This document shows positions 14,157 through 60,016 of a stretch of DNA of 64,000 nt, piece after piece (within the stretch, counting starts at the first letter, position 1; the number at the start of each line of letters is the position of its first letter). Made by a program: the position numbers and the translations under genes. The notes beneath the pieces were generated by a model. The model was not told where the DNA came from, made no database searches, and saw nothing but the letters and a program-made list of their open reading frames with translations. Origin of the DNA: an uncultured Clostridia bacterium (GTDB lineage: Bacteria > Bacillota > Clostridia > Christensenellales > Pumilibacteraceae); contig CAKQDN010000001.1 in NCBI GenBank assembly GCA_934229275.1, positions 11,596 through 75,595 on the forward strand, written 5' to 3'.

Positions 14157-14951
14157 ATGGCGTATCTCGAAGTTAAAAACTTAAATAAATCGTTCGACGG
14201 CACCGCCGTGCTTAAAGACGTCTGTTTTTCCATGGAGCAGGGCGAGGTCATGACCATAATCGGTTCGTCCGGCAGCGGAAAAACGACTGCTCTTCGCTGT
14301 CTCGTCGGCTTGGAAACGCCCGACGGCGGAGAAGCGTTTATCGGCGGCGAACGCATAATCCCGCGTGATAAAAAACGCATAAGCGACGGCGCCGTGGGCA
14401 TGGTTTTCCAGAATTATAATCTGTTTCCGCAGTACAACGTGCTGCAAAACGTCACGCTTGCCATGAACGTGCGCTCAGAAACCGCGTTAAAGGCGCAGAA
14501 AATCGGCTTTTTCGAGCGTAAAAAACGGCTTAAACGGATTAAAAAGCAAAACGCCGAAGCCGCGCTCGGACTGCTGGAAAGAGTGGGGCTGGGCGACAAA
14601 GCAACCGCCTATCCTTGGCAGTTGTCAGGCGGTCAGTGCCAGCGAGTCGCCATTGCGCGTGCGCTTGCTCTTCAGCCGTCGGTATTGTGTTTCGACGAAC
14701 CTACGAGCGCACTCGATCCGCTTTTAACGCAGGAAGTGCTGGGTGTTATCAAGTCGCTTAAAAGCAAGGACATGACCATGATAATAGTCACGCACGAGAT
14801 GAATTTCGCGCGTGCCGTGAGCGATAAGGTGCTGTTCATGTCGGACGGAGTTATTGCCGCCGAGGGAAGTCCCGACTACGTTTTCGGTGACGATGCACCC
14901 GAGCGTGTCAAGGCGTTCATCGCCGGCGCAAAAAGCGACTACGCCGAATAA
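14157..14951 (+). CDS. amino-acid ABC transporter ATP-binding protein
   Basis: Walker A GSSGSGKTT, signature LSGGQCQRVAIARAL, Walker B LCFDEPTSALD. ATG 14157 immediately after the permease stop; the ORF track start at 14121 would overlap the permease. Confidence 0.85.
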   Translation: MAYLEVKNLNKSFDGTAVLKDVCFSMEQGEVMTIIGSSGSGKTTALRCLVGLETPDGGEAFIGGERIIPRDKKRISDGAVGMVFQNYNLFPQYNVLQNVTLAMNVRSETALKAQKIGFFERKKRLKRIKKQNAEAALGLLERVGLGDKATAYPWQLSGGQCQRVAIARALALQPSVLCFDEPTSALDPLLTQEVLGVIKSLKSKDMTMIIVTHEMNFARAVSDKVLFMSDGVIAAEGSPDYVFGDDAPERVKAFIAGAKSDYAE

Positions 14952-15007
14952 CTTACTTTTTTTGGAGAAAAAGTAAGCAAAAAAACTTTTGAGTTAGGAG
15001 AATAATA

Positions 15008-15062
15008 AAACAAGGTTGGTTTTTCTGCTTAAACATTGCAGGTACCGACCTTGTTTTTTATT
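15008..15062 (+). terminator. terminator-like hairpin module (family E) after the ABC ATPase gene
   Basis: AACAAGGTTGG ... CCGACCTTGTT stem followed by TTTTTTATTGTTGTA; a near-identical module sits at 56786-56840 after dnaB. Confidence 0.55.
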
Positions 15063-15143
15063 GTTGTATGGTGGGCGTACTTTAAAGCCTCTCCCTCCGG
15101 GAGAGGTGCGGCGATAGCCGATGGAGAGGGTAATTTAAATTTT

Positions 15144-15173
15144 CGGACAGCCAACGGACGCCTGTCCCTACAA
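15144..15173 (-). repeat. REP element, variant 1 (5'-TTGTAGGGACAGGCGTCCGTTGGCTGTCCG-3' on the minus strand)
   Basis: 30/30 identical to the copy at 56873-56902; GTAG head plus GGACAG/CTGTCC arms. Confidence 0.8.
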
Positions 15174-15740
15174 AGACGCACAAACTTTGGTGCGTTGAAA
15201 TTGACTTCTTTAAAGCCTCCTTTGCTTTGCAAGGGAGGTGGCTTCGAGCATAGCGAGAAGACGGTGGGATTATTATCGGGAGGGGGAACCCCTCCCCTAC
15301 ATAGTAAACCAAACCGAGTGCGATTAAACAAGCGAAATTTACATACCAACCCTCTTCGTCGCGGTAAACCGCGCCACCTCTCCCGAAGGGCGAGGCTTTA
15401 AATGCGGTCAAAGCAGAGGCACCAAACCTTGACAAAATCGCACACCTGTCTTAAAGTTTTTTTGCCTGTTTTTTAAATAAGCAAGGTTTTTAGCCATGCA
15501 TAAGCAGAGGCACCAAACCTTGACAAAATCGCACACCTGTCTTAAAGTTTTTTTGCATACTTTTTTTCAAAAAAAGTATGGTTTCAAAAAAATTAAAAAA
15601 GAGGGGAGAGGTTGTCCTCGTCCCCTGCAATTGGAATTCGGCAAAAAATATTAAATTTCACGGGCGTGCGGTTTGCACGAGCCTGTCGCTTCCGTTACGC
15701 GTACTCGGGAGCGTAAATTTTCTGCTTTTGCGACTGTGAG

Positions 15741-51334: not shown

Positions 51335-51375
51335 AACTCAAAAGTTTTTTGCCTACTTTTTTGCAAAAAAGTAGG
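51335..51375. repeat. family-D AT-stem palindrome (CCTACTTTTTTGCAAAAAAGTAGG) with conserved 5' AACTCAAAAGTTTTTT leader
   Basis: Related copies at 14953-14997, 15541-15581 and 59953-59994. Confidence 0.7.
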
Positions 51376-51376
51376 G

Positions 51377-51406
51377 GCGGACAGTCGGGGACGCCTGTCC
51401 CTACAG
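51377..51406 (-). repeat. REP element, variant 2 (minus-strand 5'-CTGTAGGGACAGGCGTCCCCGACTGTCCGC-3'), 67 nt upstream of the RAYT gene
   Basis: GTAG head plus GGACAG/CTGTCC arms; 29/30 identical to the 57123-57152 copy. Confidence 0.8.
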
Positions 51407-51472: not shown

Positions 51473-51997
51473 ATGAATGACATAATCGAAAACAGAGTGT
51501 TGTCGCAAAGAGTTCCGACACGTTTACGATACTATGACTACAATAACGCAGGCGCGTATTTTGTAACAATATGCACAATGGGCAAAAAGTGCATATTGTC
51601 GAAGATTGTAGGGACAGGCGTCCTCGACTGTCCGCAACCGGAATTGACCGAATACGGGAAAATCGCCGAAAAATACATTAAATCGATGGGCGAGTTTTAT
51701 AAACATATTTCTATCGACGGATACGTAATAATGCCCAATCACATTCATATCATGCTTGTTATAAAAGAGTGCGAAACAATTAAAAACGACAGTCGCTCGA
51801 ACAGCGCGTATTCGCGATTTGTTTCTACGTTCAAACGTTTTTGTAATAAAGAGTACGGTAGAAACATTTGGCAGGCGCGTTCCAACGACCACATTATTCG
51901 TAACGAGCATGACTACGAAAAACACATGAAGTATATTTACGAGAATCCCTTGAAGTGGACATCCGACGAGATGTATATAAACGAGGTGCAATTGTGA
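51473..51997 (+). CDS. REP-associated tyrosine transposase (RAYT; IS200/IS605-like Y1 HuH transposase family)
   Basis: YFVTICT N-terminal motif, HuH motif MPNHIHIML, C-terminal catalytic-Tyr region NIWQARSNDHIIRNEHDYEKHMKYIYENPLKW closely resembling E. coli YafM-type RAYTs. Surrounded by cognate GTAG-headed REPs. Confidence 0.8.
   Translation: MNDIIENRVLSQRVPTRLRYYDYNNAGAYFVTICTMGKKCILSKIVGTGVLDCPQPELTEYGKIAEKYIKSMGEFYKHISIDGYVIMPNHIHIMLVIKECETIKNDSRSNSAYSRFVSTFKRFCNKEYGRNIWQARSNDHIIRNEHDYEKHMKYIYENPLKWTSDEMYINEVQL
51606..51635 (+). repeat. REP element, variant 2, in-frame inside the RAYT ORF (encodes IVGTGVLDCPQ)
   Basis: 5'-TTGTAGGGACAGGCGTCCTCGACTGTCCGC-3' differs by 1 nt from the intergenic copies at 51377 and 57123 (reverse complement). 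Confidence 0.75.
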
Positions 51998-56687: not shown

Positions 56688-56872
56688 TTATTTTTAAGGC
56701 GCAAATAAGCCGAAAAGAATGTAAAGGTTTTTTTGATTTAAACGATTTATATCTAAAGTAATTGTAAAGAAGCAGTAAACAGCAAAACAAGGTTGGCTTT
56801 TCCGTTTTAACATCGCGGATTGACCAGCCTTGTTTTTTTATTGTTGTAAGGTGAGCACACATTTGACTTCTT

Positions 56873-56902
56873 TTGTAGGGACAGGCGTCCGTTGGCTGTC
56901 CG
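56873..56902 (+). repeat. REP element, variant 1
   Basis: 5'-TTGTAGGGACAGGCGTCCGTTGGCTGTCCG-3'; identical to the reverse complement of 15144-15173. Confidence 0.8.
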
Positions 56903-56908
56903 TTTAAC

Positions 56909-57011
56909 GGGAGGGTGGAGTCCGGGTCGCAATTATAAATTGCTTCCCGCTTTGGCTACGAATAGTCCACCGGACTATTCGCTTAACGCGTCGCGCCCCG
57001 CCCCTACAAAG
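56909..57011 (-). repeat. about 100-nt structured element (GTAGGGG-headed; contains perfect palindrome GAATAGTCC-ACC-GGACTATTC), copy 1
   Basis: About 95% identical to the reverse complement of 59692-59786. Ends (CCCCGCCCCTACAAAGG) resemble REP heads. Confidence 0.75.
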
Positions 57012-57122
57012 GCGCACAAGCCGAGTGCGCTGAATCAGCCGACTTCTTTAAAGCCTCTCACTCCGGGAGAGGTGGCACGGCGCAAGCCGTGACGGAGAGG
57101 GTAATAATAGGCGCGGACAGTC

Positions 57123-57152
57123 GGGGACGCCTGTCCCTACAAATCGGATGAT
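57123..57152 (-). repeat. REP element, variant 2
   Basis: Reverse complement TTGTAGGGACAGGCGTCCCCGACTGTCCGC. Confidence 0.8.
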
Positions 57153-57346
57153 TTCGTTTTGTCCTGTGCGTTTATCCTTATATCGTAGGGGAGGGGTCTC
57201 CCCTCCCGTTTACTTTAAAATCATGACTTCTTTAAAGCCTCTCACTCCGGGAGAGGTGGCACGGCGCAAGCCGTGACGGAGAGGGTAATTGCTTGAAAAA
57301 AATACCGTTCGTACGCCCTCTTTTCACCCACCTCGACCGCAAAAAA

Positions 57347-57402
57347 TCGTCCGAAAATCGTCCGAAAATTGTCCGAAAATCATCCGAAAATCACCCGAAA
57401 AA
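57347..57402 (+). repeat. five tandem 11-bp repeats (NNTCCGAAAAT), iteron-like
   Basis: TCCGAAAAT at 57350, 57361, 57372, 57383 and CCCGAAAAA at 57394: exact 11-bp phasing. Confidence 0.75.
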
Positions 57403-57476: not shown

Positions 57477-57578
57477 TCTACTGAAAGACTAAGCGTAAAC
57501 TGCGGGTAACTAAGCGTAAACTGCGGGTCATCCGCACTTTACGCTTAGTCTTTTTCCTTGATTTTTCAGTAAAAATCG
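57477..57578. repeat. 21-bp direct repeat x2 (ACTAAGCGTAAACTGCGGGT) nested in an inverted repeat (TACTGAAAGACTAAGCGTAAA / TTTACGCTTAGTC...TTTCAGTA)
   Basis: Direct copies at 57488-57508 and 57509-57529; inverted arm at 57538-57575; about 80 nt upstream of the lipoprotein gene. Confidence 0.7.
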
Positions 57579-57655: not shown

Positions 57656-58102
57656 ATGAAAAAAGTAAAAAGTCTGAAAGTTATTGCAGCCGTGCTGTGT
57701 ATGGTTGCCGTGTGCGTCGCTGCTTTGTCGTTCGGCGCGTGTGCAAAAACAAAAGACGACGGTGCTATTGATGCAGGAGTTATACAGCCCGATGATGGAC
57801 GTCCCGATTTTAATAAAATCTACGAAGACCTCGGCTCGCCGTATTGTTGCACCGTCGCAAAAGACGGAAGTTATCTTTCGGTTGATACCAACTGGCTGGA
57901 CAGAGACGATTATTTCGATTCGACCGCTTACAGCATATTATGCCAGGTTGTAGAAAAATTGGGTTTGCCCGAATCTCTGACAGAAGAAATGAATCACACG
58001 AGAGCAATCGACGGCAGGCTGAGTGAAAAGTATACTTATGTAACCGTTTCGTGGTCGTATCATCCGGATAAAGGGCTCGAAGCAACTTTCAAACTTAATT
58101 AA
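57656..58102 (+). CDS. hypothetical lipoprotein
   Basis: Signal peptide plus lipobox (SFGAC); 148 aa; AAGGAGAA RBS. Confidence 0.55.
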   Translation: MKKVKSLKVIAAVLCMVAVCVAALSFGACAKTKDDGAIDAGVIQPDDGRPDFNKIYEDLGSPYCCTVAKDGSYLSVDTNWLDRDDYFDSTAYSILCQVVEKLGLPESLTEEMNHTRAIDGRLSEKYTYVTVSWSYHPDKGLEATFKLN

Positions 58103-58133: not shown

Positions 58134-59471
58134 ATGATTTGTAACAAATGTGGGGCGGAGAACGAGGAAGGAACCGTTTTCTGCGGAACGTGCGGCGCTC
58201 GTCTTGACGGGAAAATCAAGTGTCCGTCGTGCGGAAAGTACATCGACCCTAGCAACGTTTATTGCCCCGAGTGCGGAACGCGAACGGACGGCAAAAAGAC
58301 CTGCCCGAAGTGCGGCTCGGTGGTCGAGGGTAAGTTTTGTCCGAAGTGCGGTACCGCCGTGGATAAAGCCGGGAGAATAGAGAACGCTAAAACGAAAAAA
58401 ATACTGAGCATAGTGTCTAATGCGCTTTTTCTTTGCGCAGTGGCAGTATCATTGTTGTTTATATTCTTAATCGGATGGGAAAGCAGTTCTTCAACCAAGT
58501 TTACATCGAACAGCGAATCGGCGAATATTTTCTATTTGTTCGGGAAGAAAAACGAATATTTCGATTCATCGTATAATTGGCTCCCGATAACGCTGTACAT
58601 AATTTCGTTATTGCTTGTTATTGGGTTTGCGACGATAGCGGCAATTAAATCCGTTCCTTTGTTTAAAGGTGAAAATAAGGGTGAGATAGTCACGTACTCT
58701 TTTGTGCCGGTAATCGTCTATTTTGCATTCTGTCTTATAGTCAAAATGTTTGTCGGAATGAGCAATAATGGTGATATTGAAGGAATAGCGACGGAAGCAA
58801 GTGTGAAACTTAATCCGGCGACAGTGGCAGGATTGATTATTGCGATATTACTATTTATCGCAGGATTGATATTGCATATTGTGGCAAATAACGAGAATGA
58901 AAACAAAAAGAGATATATGACGAACGCAATAAACGCATGTATCGGAGTCGGTATTGTGTTTGTGCTTATATTATTTATCGGTAGCACCGGAATAGATTTC
59001 AGGACTGATCTTCGTGAAAGGTCTAGTATTTATTCATCATCGTATAATGAGTCTTACATTGAAGGAAGGAACTCAATAGTACGTGTGGCTGCTGCGCTTG
59101 AGAAAAAAAGCCTGGGCTTGACTGCTATGTTGTTTGGCATTGCAGCCGTAGCGTTGGCGGTTTATATCGCGATCGTGGCTTTGAAAAAAACGAATAGCAA
59201 AACCTCGATGTTGAGAGTTATTCTTTCGTCGTTGGAAGTTGCGCTGTCGATTGTTTTTATGATTTTTACTTTAGTACTATCCGGTAAATATGAAAAATCT
59301 TTAAACCCAGACCCCACCTCGTATGTTATATGTACAGGTTCGGCATCTGCGCCGATGTTTGTCGGAGTTATCGTTTTTGCGGTTTTATTGTTGGCTTCGT
59401 CGATAGTTGCTTGCGTTTTGGAAAAGAAAACCGCTAATGCAGCAGGGGCAGATTATAATTACGACATGTAA
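58134..59471 (+). CDS. zinc-ribbon-domain polytopic membrane protein
   Basis: N-terminal 4x CxxCG...CxxCG zinc ribbons (residues 4-75) followed by about 8 TM helices; AAGGAGAA RBS; no further functional assignment. Confidence 0.6.
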   Translation: MICNKCGAENEEGTVFCGTCGARLDGKIKCPSCGKYIDPSNVYCPECGTRTDGKKTCPKCGSVVEGKFCPKCGTAVDKAGRIENAKTKKILSIVSNALFLCAVAVSLLFIFLIGWESSSSTKFTSNSESANIFYLFGKKNEYFDSSYNWLPITLYIISLLLVIGFATIAAIKSVPLFKGENKGEIVTYSFVPVIVYFAFCLIVKMFVGMSNNGDIEGIATEASVKLNPATVAGLIIAILLFIAGLILHIVANNENENKKRYMTNAINACIGVGIVFVLILFIGSTGIDFRTDLRERSSIYSSSYNESYIEGRNSIVRVAAALEKKSLGLTAMLFGIAAVALAVYIAIVALKKTNSKTSMLRVILSSLEVALSIVFMIFTLVLSGKYEKSLNPDPTSYVICTGSASAPMFVGVIVFAVLLLASSIVACVLEKKTANAAGADYNYDM

Positions 59472-60016
59472 ATTATTCAGACACACCACCACCCGTTTTA
59501 AGGCACTCTTGCCCGATGGATAAAATCGGATAGGGGTGCCTGTTTTTTTAAAGTGGGACATGGATGGTCGTCGTCGGAGTTGATCGCGTATCGGAGTGGT
59601 TAAATAACCCTCTTCGTCGGCTGCCGCCGCCATCTCTCCCAGTGGGCGAGGCTTTAAAGAGGACGATTTTAAAGCACCAAGGTTTGAGCGACTTTGTAGG
59701 GGAGGGGCGCGACGCGTTAAGCGAATAGTCCGGTGGACTATTCGTAGCCAAAGCGGGAAGCAATTTATAATTGCGACCCGGACTCCCCCCCCTCCCGAAA
59801 ATAATCCCACCGTCTTCTCGCTATGCTCGAAGCCACCTCCCTTGCATAGCAAAGGAGGCTTTAAAGAGGTCGATTATTTTAAAGTAAGCGGATAGAAGGT
59901 AGCGCCCTGTCCCTACAAAAAAAGTCAAAAGTGCGTTCTCCCAACTTCCCCTAACTCAAAAGTTTTTTGCCTACTTTTTTTCAAAAAAGTACGGTGCTTT
60001 TTTACAAAAAAGTAAG
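59472..60016. repeat. BIME-like mosaic cluster 3 (terminator hairpin, inverted family-A hairpins, about 100-nt element copy 2, truncated REP, family-D palindrome)
   Basis: Hairpin plus T-run 59492-59548, family A (inverted) 59600-59665 and 59833-59880, long element 59692-59786, REP half CCTGTCCCTACAA at 59906-59918, family D at 59953-59994. Confidence 0.8.
59692..59786 (+). repeat. about 100-nt structured element, copy 2 (inverted relative to copy 1)
   Basis: 5'-TTGTAGGGGAGGGGCGCGACGCGTTAAGCGAATAGTCCGGTGGACTATTCG...GGACTCCCCCCCCTCCCG-3'. Confidence 0.75.

Follow-up and report, generated by a model that had tools for sequence, protein, structure and literature searches.

Why should a transposase gene carry, in frame within its own coding sequence, a copy of its cognate repeat, and is such a copy a recent arrival or an old part of the gene? 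The question is raised by a stretch of 64,000 nucleotides (hereafter the window) from an uncultured Clostridia bacterium (GenBank assembly GCA_934229275.1, contig CAKQDN010000001.1), in which the gene for a REP-associated tyrosine transposase (RAYT, or TnpA-REP) contains a repetitive extragenic palindromic (REP) sequence. An earlier note on this DNA, made from its letters, saw in this copy an unusual and perhaps recent insertion. Judged by its relatives, the in-gene REP is instead old and shared, neither recent nor private to this genome, and most related genes carry a second, inverted copy as well. On balance we think that the in-gene REPs are probably cis-acting recognition hairpins of the encoded RAYT, and that they form an ancient, co-evolving inverted pair.

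The REP copy and its host gene

The in-gene 30-mer (51606-51635; coordinates of all copies are collected in Table 1) is a genuine member of the GTAG-tagged REP family dispersed in this genome. A search tolerating up to three mismatches finds it at exactly three places in the window, its own included, and none are expected in shuffled sequence. A 17-nt core, GGACGCCTGTCCCTACA, recurs at five sites (15156+, 51389+, 51607-, 56874- and 57125+) and was absent from 100 shuffles. There are four extragenic copies in the window, and the one that lies just upstream of the gene forms with the in-gene copy a 29-nt inverted repeat that is 97% complementary. As single-stranded DNA the in-gene copy is predicted to fold, after its GTAG, into two stem segments of 6 and 2 bp that are separated by a purine-purine mismatch and closed by a 4-nt loop; the fold energy is -9.1 kcal/mol (z -3.7), and the extragenic copies fold likewise. 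The 5' GT[AG]G that marks the hairpin foot of a REP is present as GTAG, followed by GGACAG...CTGTCC.

Sequence, copies and fold therefore bear out the earlier note in placing a REP on the forward strand inside its cognate RAYT gene, and also in its translation, IVGTGVLDCPQ, which in the open reading frame (ORF) 51473-51997 (+) corresponds to I45-VGTGVLDCP-Q55 and leaves frame and catalytic motifs intact. Its partner at 51377-51406 was correctly located, while the other, given as 57123-57152, is really 10 nt away at 57113-57142. The single-base difference ascribed to both holds for the latter; the former differs at 2 of 30 nt, or at 1 of 29.

The product of the gene is, by its sequence and its AlphaFold model, a RAYT/TnpA-REP-type Y1 HUH nuclease. 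Motif positions were read from the sequence and from its alignment to E. coli TnpA-REP. The HUH motif MPNHIH (H90-I-H92, 51740-51748) falls on strand 90-97 of the model and is invariant in a 44-sequence alignment. The catalytic tyrosine is Y154 in YIYENP (51932-51934), with an asparagine four residues further on (N158); the motif aligns to E. coli YIYINP and obeys the rule Y115...N119 of the E. coli enzyme (PMC6006769). The GTAG-binding residues are W133, Q134, D139, H140 and R143 (51869-51901), aligned with W94, Q95, E100, H101 and R104 of E. coli, and the E-to-D change among them is known from subclasses 2.5 and 2.7 (PMC6006769). The scores against curated profiles lie under the cut-offs (NCBIfam NF047646 REP_Tyr_transpos, E 2.9e-17 and 62.9 bits against 80; Pfam PF01797, 13.2 bits against 23), so that the clade to which this RAYT belongs must be considered divergent. 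The sole match by sequence in the PDB is 4ER8, E. coli TnpA-REP (E 1.1e-8). The same structure, 4er8_A, is the top Foldseek match of the model (mean predicted local distance difference test, pLDDT, 80; E 2.2e-7; template modelling score 0.59-0.62), and IS200/IS605 transposases rank after it with E 2e-5 or weaker.

In the model, the REP-encoded residues make up the turn that joins strands 43-46 and 55-58, a beta-hairpin placed after beta1 and ahead of the first helix. We call this position site 1. Sequence alignment indicates that E. coli TnpA-REP has no such beta-hairpin. A second position, site 2, is the loop (98-111) that leads from the HUH strand to the following helix. Both are surface loops.

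An inverted REP pair in the genes of relatives

The age of the copy can be judged from homologues (6,694 clusters retrieved at the 90% identity level, 17,579 at the 50% level with E <= 1e-3) and from a scan of species-representative genomes that yielded 80 loci, all in uncultured Clostridia of gut or rumen, among them Oscillospiraceae and Acutalibacteraceae. An alignment of 44 homologues of 60-70% identity shows no change at V46, G47, V50, D52 or P54. Among the nearest 120 protein clusters, the site-1 peptide is found in 116, a site-2 peptide in 112 and both in 109. When site 1 is defined by its alignment column, 64 of 70 genes from other genomes have all eight Watson-Crick pairs (8/8) of the hairpin, and so do 62 of 66 genes at site 2.

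The site-2 peptide, NGQSRTPVPT, directly follows the HUH strand in most relatives and is absent from the window protein. It is encoded by GGA CAG TCG AGG ACG CCT GTC CCT ACA, which is the reverse complement of the REP; the genes of relatives thus hold a pair of REPs, both in frame and inverted with respect to each other. Comparison of the regions on either side of the HUH motif brings out a perfect or near-perfect inverted repeat of 27-32 nt in about 60 of 71 genes from other genomes; it scores 20-32, where codon shuffling gives about 7.5 and at most 13. One copy (arm 1) comes before the HUH strand, and the other (arm 2) occupies the loop that follows the strand; they are 130-200 nt apart, and their GTAG ends point outward. 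Such an intragenic inverted pair typifies a large RAYT clade of gut and rumen Clostridia.

A recent, private insertion or recombination footprint, as the earlier note had proposed, would account for the near-identity of the in-gene copy to extragenic copies of the window and for the absence of the segment from distant RAYTs. However, this reading is refuted, since the same REP occupies the same codons in the clusters and genes counted above, the closest relatives (66-70% identity) among them. The observation that relatives are a few residues shorter here is true of distant RAYTs, i.e., E. coli TnpA-REP and the REP-less relatives L080, L042 and L079, but not of close ones. The three REP-less genes have short loops in place of both arms, which indicates that the REPs are insertions with respect to the ancestral fold, albeit old ones. 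In L042 and L079 a REP pair is found just outside the gene.

Could the segment be conserved simply as a peptide? If IVGTGVLDCPQ were selected for its amino acids, its likeness to a REP would be incidental, and the peptide is indeed highly conserved in close homologues. Yet synonymous positions are frozen just in the arms. Where two genes have the same residue at an arm codon, codon identity is 0.87-1.00 (arm 1: V 1.00, G 1.00, D 1.00, L 0.96; arm 2: S 0.93, R 0.94, T 0.97, P 0.97), compared with about 0.5 for codons over variable stem positions and 0.2-0.6 for invariant catalytic columns (P of MPNH 0.28, R of FKR 0.22, G129 0.34). Moreover, arm 2 is an exact reverse complement read in a different frame. 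Radical replacements (L/P, R/G, C/G/A/V/R) occur at positions encoded by loop and stem; the L/P and R/G alternations fall on a single variable loop base, and other changes follow base-pairing, as when TGT becomes GGT in arm 1 (C to G) together with CAG to CCG in arm 2 (Q to P). Finally, the exact 26-mer is mostly extragenic in an unbiased sample of metagenome contigs: of the 148 copies among the matches listed (120 contigs), 21 belong to RAYT genes, divided between site 1 (11) and site 2 (10), 79 are outside RAYT genes and 48 are within 150 nt of a contig end, so that 79 of the 100 classifiable copies lie outside RAYT genes. Selection or convergence at the protein level alone is refuted by these findings. 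The arms are constrained as nucleic-acid hairpins, not as peptide, and the alternative foreseen in the earlier note, orthologues with the same peptide and no REP signature, is not what is seen: they carry the peptide together with the REP nucleotide signature, which co-varies with the second, inverted REP. The latter could not be seen from the letters of the window, since the window gene has lost it.

The pattern of variation is that of a hairpin family. In 48 distinct arm sequences, three stem positions show four pair types each, while GTAGGG, the inner C-G/G-C pairs and the purine-purine mismatch are unchanged throughout. This set had been pre-filtered for pairing, and the unbiased count is that of the column-defined arms given above. 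In 51 of 66 genes the stem type of arm 1 is also that of arm 2, where 2,000 permutations gave a mean of 12.2 and a maximum of 25. On a neighbour-joining tree of the RAYT proteins that leaves the arm columns out, the stem types ACCG, ACAG, GGCG, GTCG, GACG, GATG, ACGG and GCGG form clades, and a change from one type to another needs four coordinated substitutions. Six hybrid genes (L039, L047, L053, L062, L067 and L069, the first two being sisters) have arms of differing type, and in each of them both arms have a perfect stem of their own, which suggests that the maintained unit is the local hairpin and not arm-to-arm pairing. Altogether, the arms change in step with one another and with the RAYT protein.

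Inverted repeats of 27-32 nt that bracket a catalytic core might also act as an invertible switch, flipping the HUH-encoding core of about 140 nt and thereby turning the gene off and on. This is very unlikely. Among 90 head-to-head REP pairs spaced 100-300 nt apart at 200 loci, 78 enclose a core in normal orientation, none an inverted one, and 12 do not enclose RAYT cores; the window gene, in addition, lacks the second arm.

The arrangement is not restricted to one REP type. RAYT paralogues on the same contigs carry other REPs at both loops: GTAGGGGCAATTCACGAATTGCCC, translated VGAIHELP and RAIRESPL, and TAGGGCGGGGGCTTGCTCCCGCC, translated IGRGLAPA and AGASPRPT. In the AIHELP-type paralogous clade, which scores as PF01797, 100 of 120 clusters have the REP at site 1, 106 at site 2 and 89 at both. 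Of 144 diverse representatives of 50% clusters, at least 30 passed an anchored test for perfectly reverse-complement-compatible VG.../...PT peptide pairs, which were of more than 20 types; of 432 controls made of mismatched proteins, 4 did so. That each paralogue has its own internal REP type is in keeping with paralogue-specific REP families. Two RAYT paralogues per contig were seen at L018, L047, L063, L067 and L069, and they are adjacent in L047, L063 and L069.

A number of further REPs were noticed in and around the genes of relatives. The unit can be reiterated in frame, at site 1 in P0005, P0016, L006 and L018 (in some cases as two or three copies) and at site 2 in L013, L020, L033, L040, L057/P0109 and P0103. 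Such tandem arrays comprise 2-5 units in RAYT homologues (e.g., TDGPSRTPV repeated, or IVGTGVLDCPQNQS.DN repeated), and account for protein lengths of up to 222-284 amino acids. Many relatives with arm 2 have a third REP about 215 nt 5' of arm 1 and in the same orientation (L002 9913, L003 9922, L025 5403, L043 9895, L057 4611, all +). In L043 and L057 a further inverted REP 3' of the gene results in a nested (+)(+)...(-)(-) layout. Extragenic head-to-head pairs in related genomes enclose AT-rich spacers of 44-115 nt, with one exception (L046 18270-18461), which turns out to be a second RAYT gene. The AT-rich spacers are unrelated to the HUH core, which rules out that extragenic REPINs (REP doublets forming hairpins) are deletion derivatives of the gene.

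What the arms may do

TnpA-REP proteins bind single-stranded REP DNA when it is the strand with GTAG, and cut at CT or CA in its flanks; the complementary strand is inert (PMC8266576). Since the window protein keeps the GTAG-contact residues, the arms may be cis-acting sites, and the encoded RAYT would bind GTAG plus hairpin of the arms of its own gene on single-stranded DNA. This recognition step by itself, which is drawn from sequence and from analogy with TnpA-REP, commands less confidence than our statement on the in-gene REPs as a whole. The inverted orientation would offer one GTAG strand on each DNA strand. Arms within the gene would keep enzyme and substrate genetically linked, and so make them co-evolve. 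They may also serve as a handle on the gene itself, be it for feedback on its expression or for arm homogenisation mediated by the RAYT, and the nine encoded residues would be a tolerated passenger in the loop. Autoregulation through the in-gene REP, already considered in the earlier note, is possible.

A bolder version, rather doubtful at present, is that the RAYT gene is itself built as a REPIN, with the catalytic core between two functional recognition hairpins, one per strand, upon which the enzyme acts in cis. The pair would then serve feedback, or a protected master copy that both seeds the genomic REP family and makes it uniform again; co-evolution of specificity and substrate would be forced, and in the subclade of the window gene the partner hairpin would have moved to the 5' leader.

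This subclade has lost arm 2 and comprises the window gene, L045 (66% identity) and P0002/L201 (70% identity). All three genes have an inverted REP 70-110 nt 5' of the ATG, amid DNA that cannot otherwise be aligned. In the window the upstream and the in-gene copies are 201 nt apart with their GTAG ends inward, unlike the GTAG-outward intragenic pair of relatives; the upstream copy of many arm-2-bearing relatives is oriented like arm 1, whereas that of the window subclade is inverted. At the place of the missing arm, an 8-nt match to arm 2 (51788-51795) lies within the range of codon shuffles (mean 7.4, maximum 10), and its interpretation as a remnant of the lost arm is at most suggestive. A copy of an AT-rich palindrome, AAAAGTTTTTTGCCTACTTTTTT(G)CAAAAAAGTAGG, is found directly 5' of the upstream REP (51340-51376), with others at 59958-59994, 15544-15575 and 14958-14989; a 76-nt block that includes this palindrome is repeated at 59919-59994.

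The same geometry could operate at the level of the mRNA. The arms, or in the window the upstream and the in-gene copies, would pair as a duplex of about 27-31 bp that limits translation or recruits RNase III and so lowers RAYT expression. In favour of such an element is the perfect complementarity over 27-32 nt in most genes. If co-transcribed, the two copies of the window are predicted to form a 31-bp duplex (-113 kcal/mol, z -10.8), which would enclose the start codon together with the ribosome-binding site. Nevertheless, each arm conserves a hairpin of its own for which long-range pairing has no need, and hybrid genes combine perfect local stems with broken inter-arm complementarity. T/C differences in the loop would result in a U-G wobble in 10 genes and in a C-A mismatch in 9, hence no preference for pairing. 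Together with the hybrids, these cases argue against long-range RNA pairing as the conserved unit. A scan of the surroundings of the window gene detected neither a terminator nor, in the interval from the upstream REP to the ATG, a usable promoter, and gives no evidence that the upstream copy is co-transcribed with the gene. In Rfam only a chance-level microRNA match was obtained (E 0.14, 21 bits against a cut-off of 80 bits). We regard a regulatory mRNA element as unlikely.

The main rival is that the arms are tolerated passengers. REPs would have landed once in two permissive loops, without any function, and would have been kept palindromic and alike by mutational mechanisms: quasipalindrome template switching, gene conversion in which the arms exchange with each other or with REPs elsewhere in the genome, or overwriting time and again by a RAYT that is made next to its own gene. 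This is a real possibility, although not a probable one. The surface location of both sites in the model agrees with it, as do the in-frame tandem multiplication of REPs at both sites, a sign of local instability, the existence of hybrid arms and arm losses, and the clustering of extragenic REPs within about 100 nt of RAYT genes. The same view was taken for subclass 2.4 by Quentin et al. 2018 (PMC6006769). On the other hand, both arms occupy identical codons in about 90% of genes among relatives of 36-70% identity, although coding hairpins should be prone to deletion. The REP type tracks the protein tree, which is not what random overwriting would produce, and the subclade without arm 2 keeps an inverted partner upstream.

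Several observations weigh against cis-acting recognition hairpins. Loss of arm 2 leaves the ORF whole in the window gene, P0002 and P0065, and the persistence of hybrid genes means that identity of the arms is not strictly needed. In the opinion of Quentin et al. the site-2 loop is peripheral to the DNA-binding surface and insertions there are probably neutral (PMC6006769). Selection need not be the cause of coordinated stem changes, which template switching at quasipalindromes or gene conversion could also bring about. At most loci there are few or no extragenic REPs within +/-10 kb, and where they exist only about half match the in-gene type.

Surroundings, known systems and implications

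Table 1. The RAYT gene of the window, its REP copies and the candidate trace of arm 2
Feature	Position	Strand	Remarks
RAYT/TnpA-REP-like gene	51473-51997	+	174 amino acids; ORF, profile and structure matches
In-frame REP copy TTGTAGGGACAGGCGTCCTCGACTGTCCGC	51606-51635	+	arm 1; core GTAG plus hairpin 51608-51633; codons V46-P54
Inverted REP copy	51377-51406	-	67 nt 5' of the ATG; 201 nt from the in-gene copy
Extragenic REP copy	57113-57142	-	1 mismatch to the in-gene copy
Extragenic REP copy, loop variant GCGTCCGTTGG	56872-56902	+	head-to-head pair with 57113-57142
Extragenic REP copy	15144-15174	-	has the loop variant of 56872-56902
GACAGTCG, possible 8-nt remnant of arm 2	51788-51795	+	where homologues begin GGACAGTCGAGGACGCCTGTCCCTAC (peptide GQSRTPVPT)

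Upstream of the RAYT gene lies a gene for an M3 oligoendopeptidase. At 51994-51997 the TGA stop codon of the RAYT gene (51995-51997) overlaps the GTG start of the next ORF, which suggests translational coupling of the two; the downstream product has a signal-peptide-like N-terminus and no Pfam match. A search of PHROGs, with a phage origin in mind, yielded only a family of unknown function.

The window contains other repeats as well. A second GTAG-tagged REP family, GTAGGGGAGGGG(TTC/TCT)CCCCTCCC, with an 8-bp stem and a 3-nt loop, is represented at 15278-15300 (-) and 57185-57207 (+) and presumably belongs to another RAYT paralogue, located outside the window. A 65-nt direct repeat (TTTAAAGCCTCTCACTCCGGGAGAGGTGGCACGGCGCAAGCCGTGACGGAGAGGG...) occurs at 57041-57105 and 57225-57289 (100% identical), with a diverged copy at 15075-15139. 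It has palindromes nested inside and belongs to mosaic clusters of intergenic repeats (14950-15600, 56850-57300 and 59630-59990). Long inverted repeats, 95% complementary, connect 56913-57022 with 59681-59790 (110 nt) and 15199-15286 with 59788-59875 (88 nt). The 110-nt pair brackets 2.66 kb with two ORFs, 57656-58102 (no Pfam match) and 58134-59471 (double zinc-ribbon N-terminus); a mobile or invertible unit is one candidate explanation, a mosaic cluster of repeats another. Tandem repeats are found at 57343-57401 (5.4 copies of the 11-nt unit AAAATCGTCCG) and at 57488-57528 (two copies of a 21-nt unit).

An in-frame REP in a RAYT gene is not new in principle, and the earlier note overstated the case in calling it unusual. 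Quentin, Siguier, Chandler and Fichant (2018, BMC Genomics 19:475; PMC6006769) reported in-frame REPs in tnpA-REP genes as a "unique feature" of subclass 2.4, generally between HUH and Tyr in the beta3/alphaC loop. There, short DNA repeats explain the variable length of the loop, and some members of subclass 2.8 have a REP insertion too (PMC6006769). As in subclass 2.4, the genes described here contain REPs of the cognate family with the frame intact, the main site beta3/alphaC corresponds to site 2, and the REPs are canonical, with GT[AG]G and G-C pairs at the base of the stem (PMC6006769); these shared traits of the Clostridial clade are a resemblance and not a class assignment. The examples of subclass 2.4 come mainly from Cyanobacteria and Bacteroidetes, whereas ours are from uncultured gut Clostridia. 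In the literature searched, including the text of PMC6006769, no REP in the beta1/alphaA hairpin, the site of the in-gene copy, is described, nor a pair of inverted REPs as a fixed layout, synonymous sites that are frozen, arms that evolve in concert or this Clostridial clade. PMC6006769, as far as its text shows, describes no co-divergence of REP and protein. The window gene is one more member of the known phenomenon and an atypical one, having kept the first arm only.

The E. coli REPtron (4ER8; PMC3479197, PMC8266576) has the same fold, the same catalytic motifs and a 5'-GTAG plus hairpin with an internal mismatch, and there too REP copies adjoin the gene. In E. coli, however, the REPs flank the gene instead of lying within its coding sequence, and TnpA-REP is without the beta-hairpin of arm 1. 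The intragenic pair of relatives resembles a REPIN (Bertels and Rainey 2011; PMC3116915, PMC3337134) in being two inverted REPs with GTAG outward, but its spacer of 130-200 nt encodes the HUH core, unlike the AT-rich spacers of extragenic pairs, and the window gene has one arm inside only. The Rickettsia palindromic elements (RPEs) and the intragenic GTAG/CGTC REPs (Di Nocera et al. 2013, PMC3733652) are likewise short palindromes tolerated in frame in protein loops. Those insertions are scattered over unrelated genes and are lineage-specific, whereas in the present case the host gene encodes the enzyme of the repeat itself and the sites are conserved in the clade. With IS200/IS605 elements (IS608, ISDra2) the clade shares a Y1 HUH enzyme, sub-terminal hairpins on one strand and a guide tetranucleotide 5' of the hairpin. 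Their hairpins bracket the whole element on the same strand, while the arms described here are inverted and internal, and the unit that they bracket is consequently not an autonomous element.

For the window alone the result is modest. A practical consequence concerns annotation: VGTGVLDCP/GQSRTPVPT and VGAIHESP/RAIRESPL are repeat-encoded peptides, and peptides of this kind explain the heterogeneous length of RAYT proteins and their tandem "low-complexity" stretches. The wider interest lies in how REPs and REPINs spread and stay matched to a single-copy RAYT. A natural set of RAYTs with their own substrate in frame, in which more than 20 REP variants co-vary on both arms and with the protein lineage, is a compact system that could reveal action in cis, the stem and loop positions that determine recognition, and the co-evolution of enzyme and repeat. 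The conserved, co-varying pair and the relocated partner of the window subclade make cis action by a RAYT directly testable.

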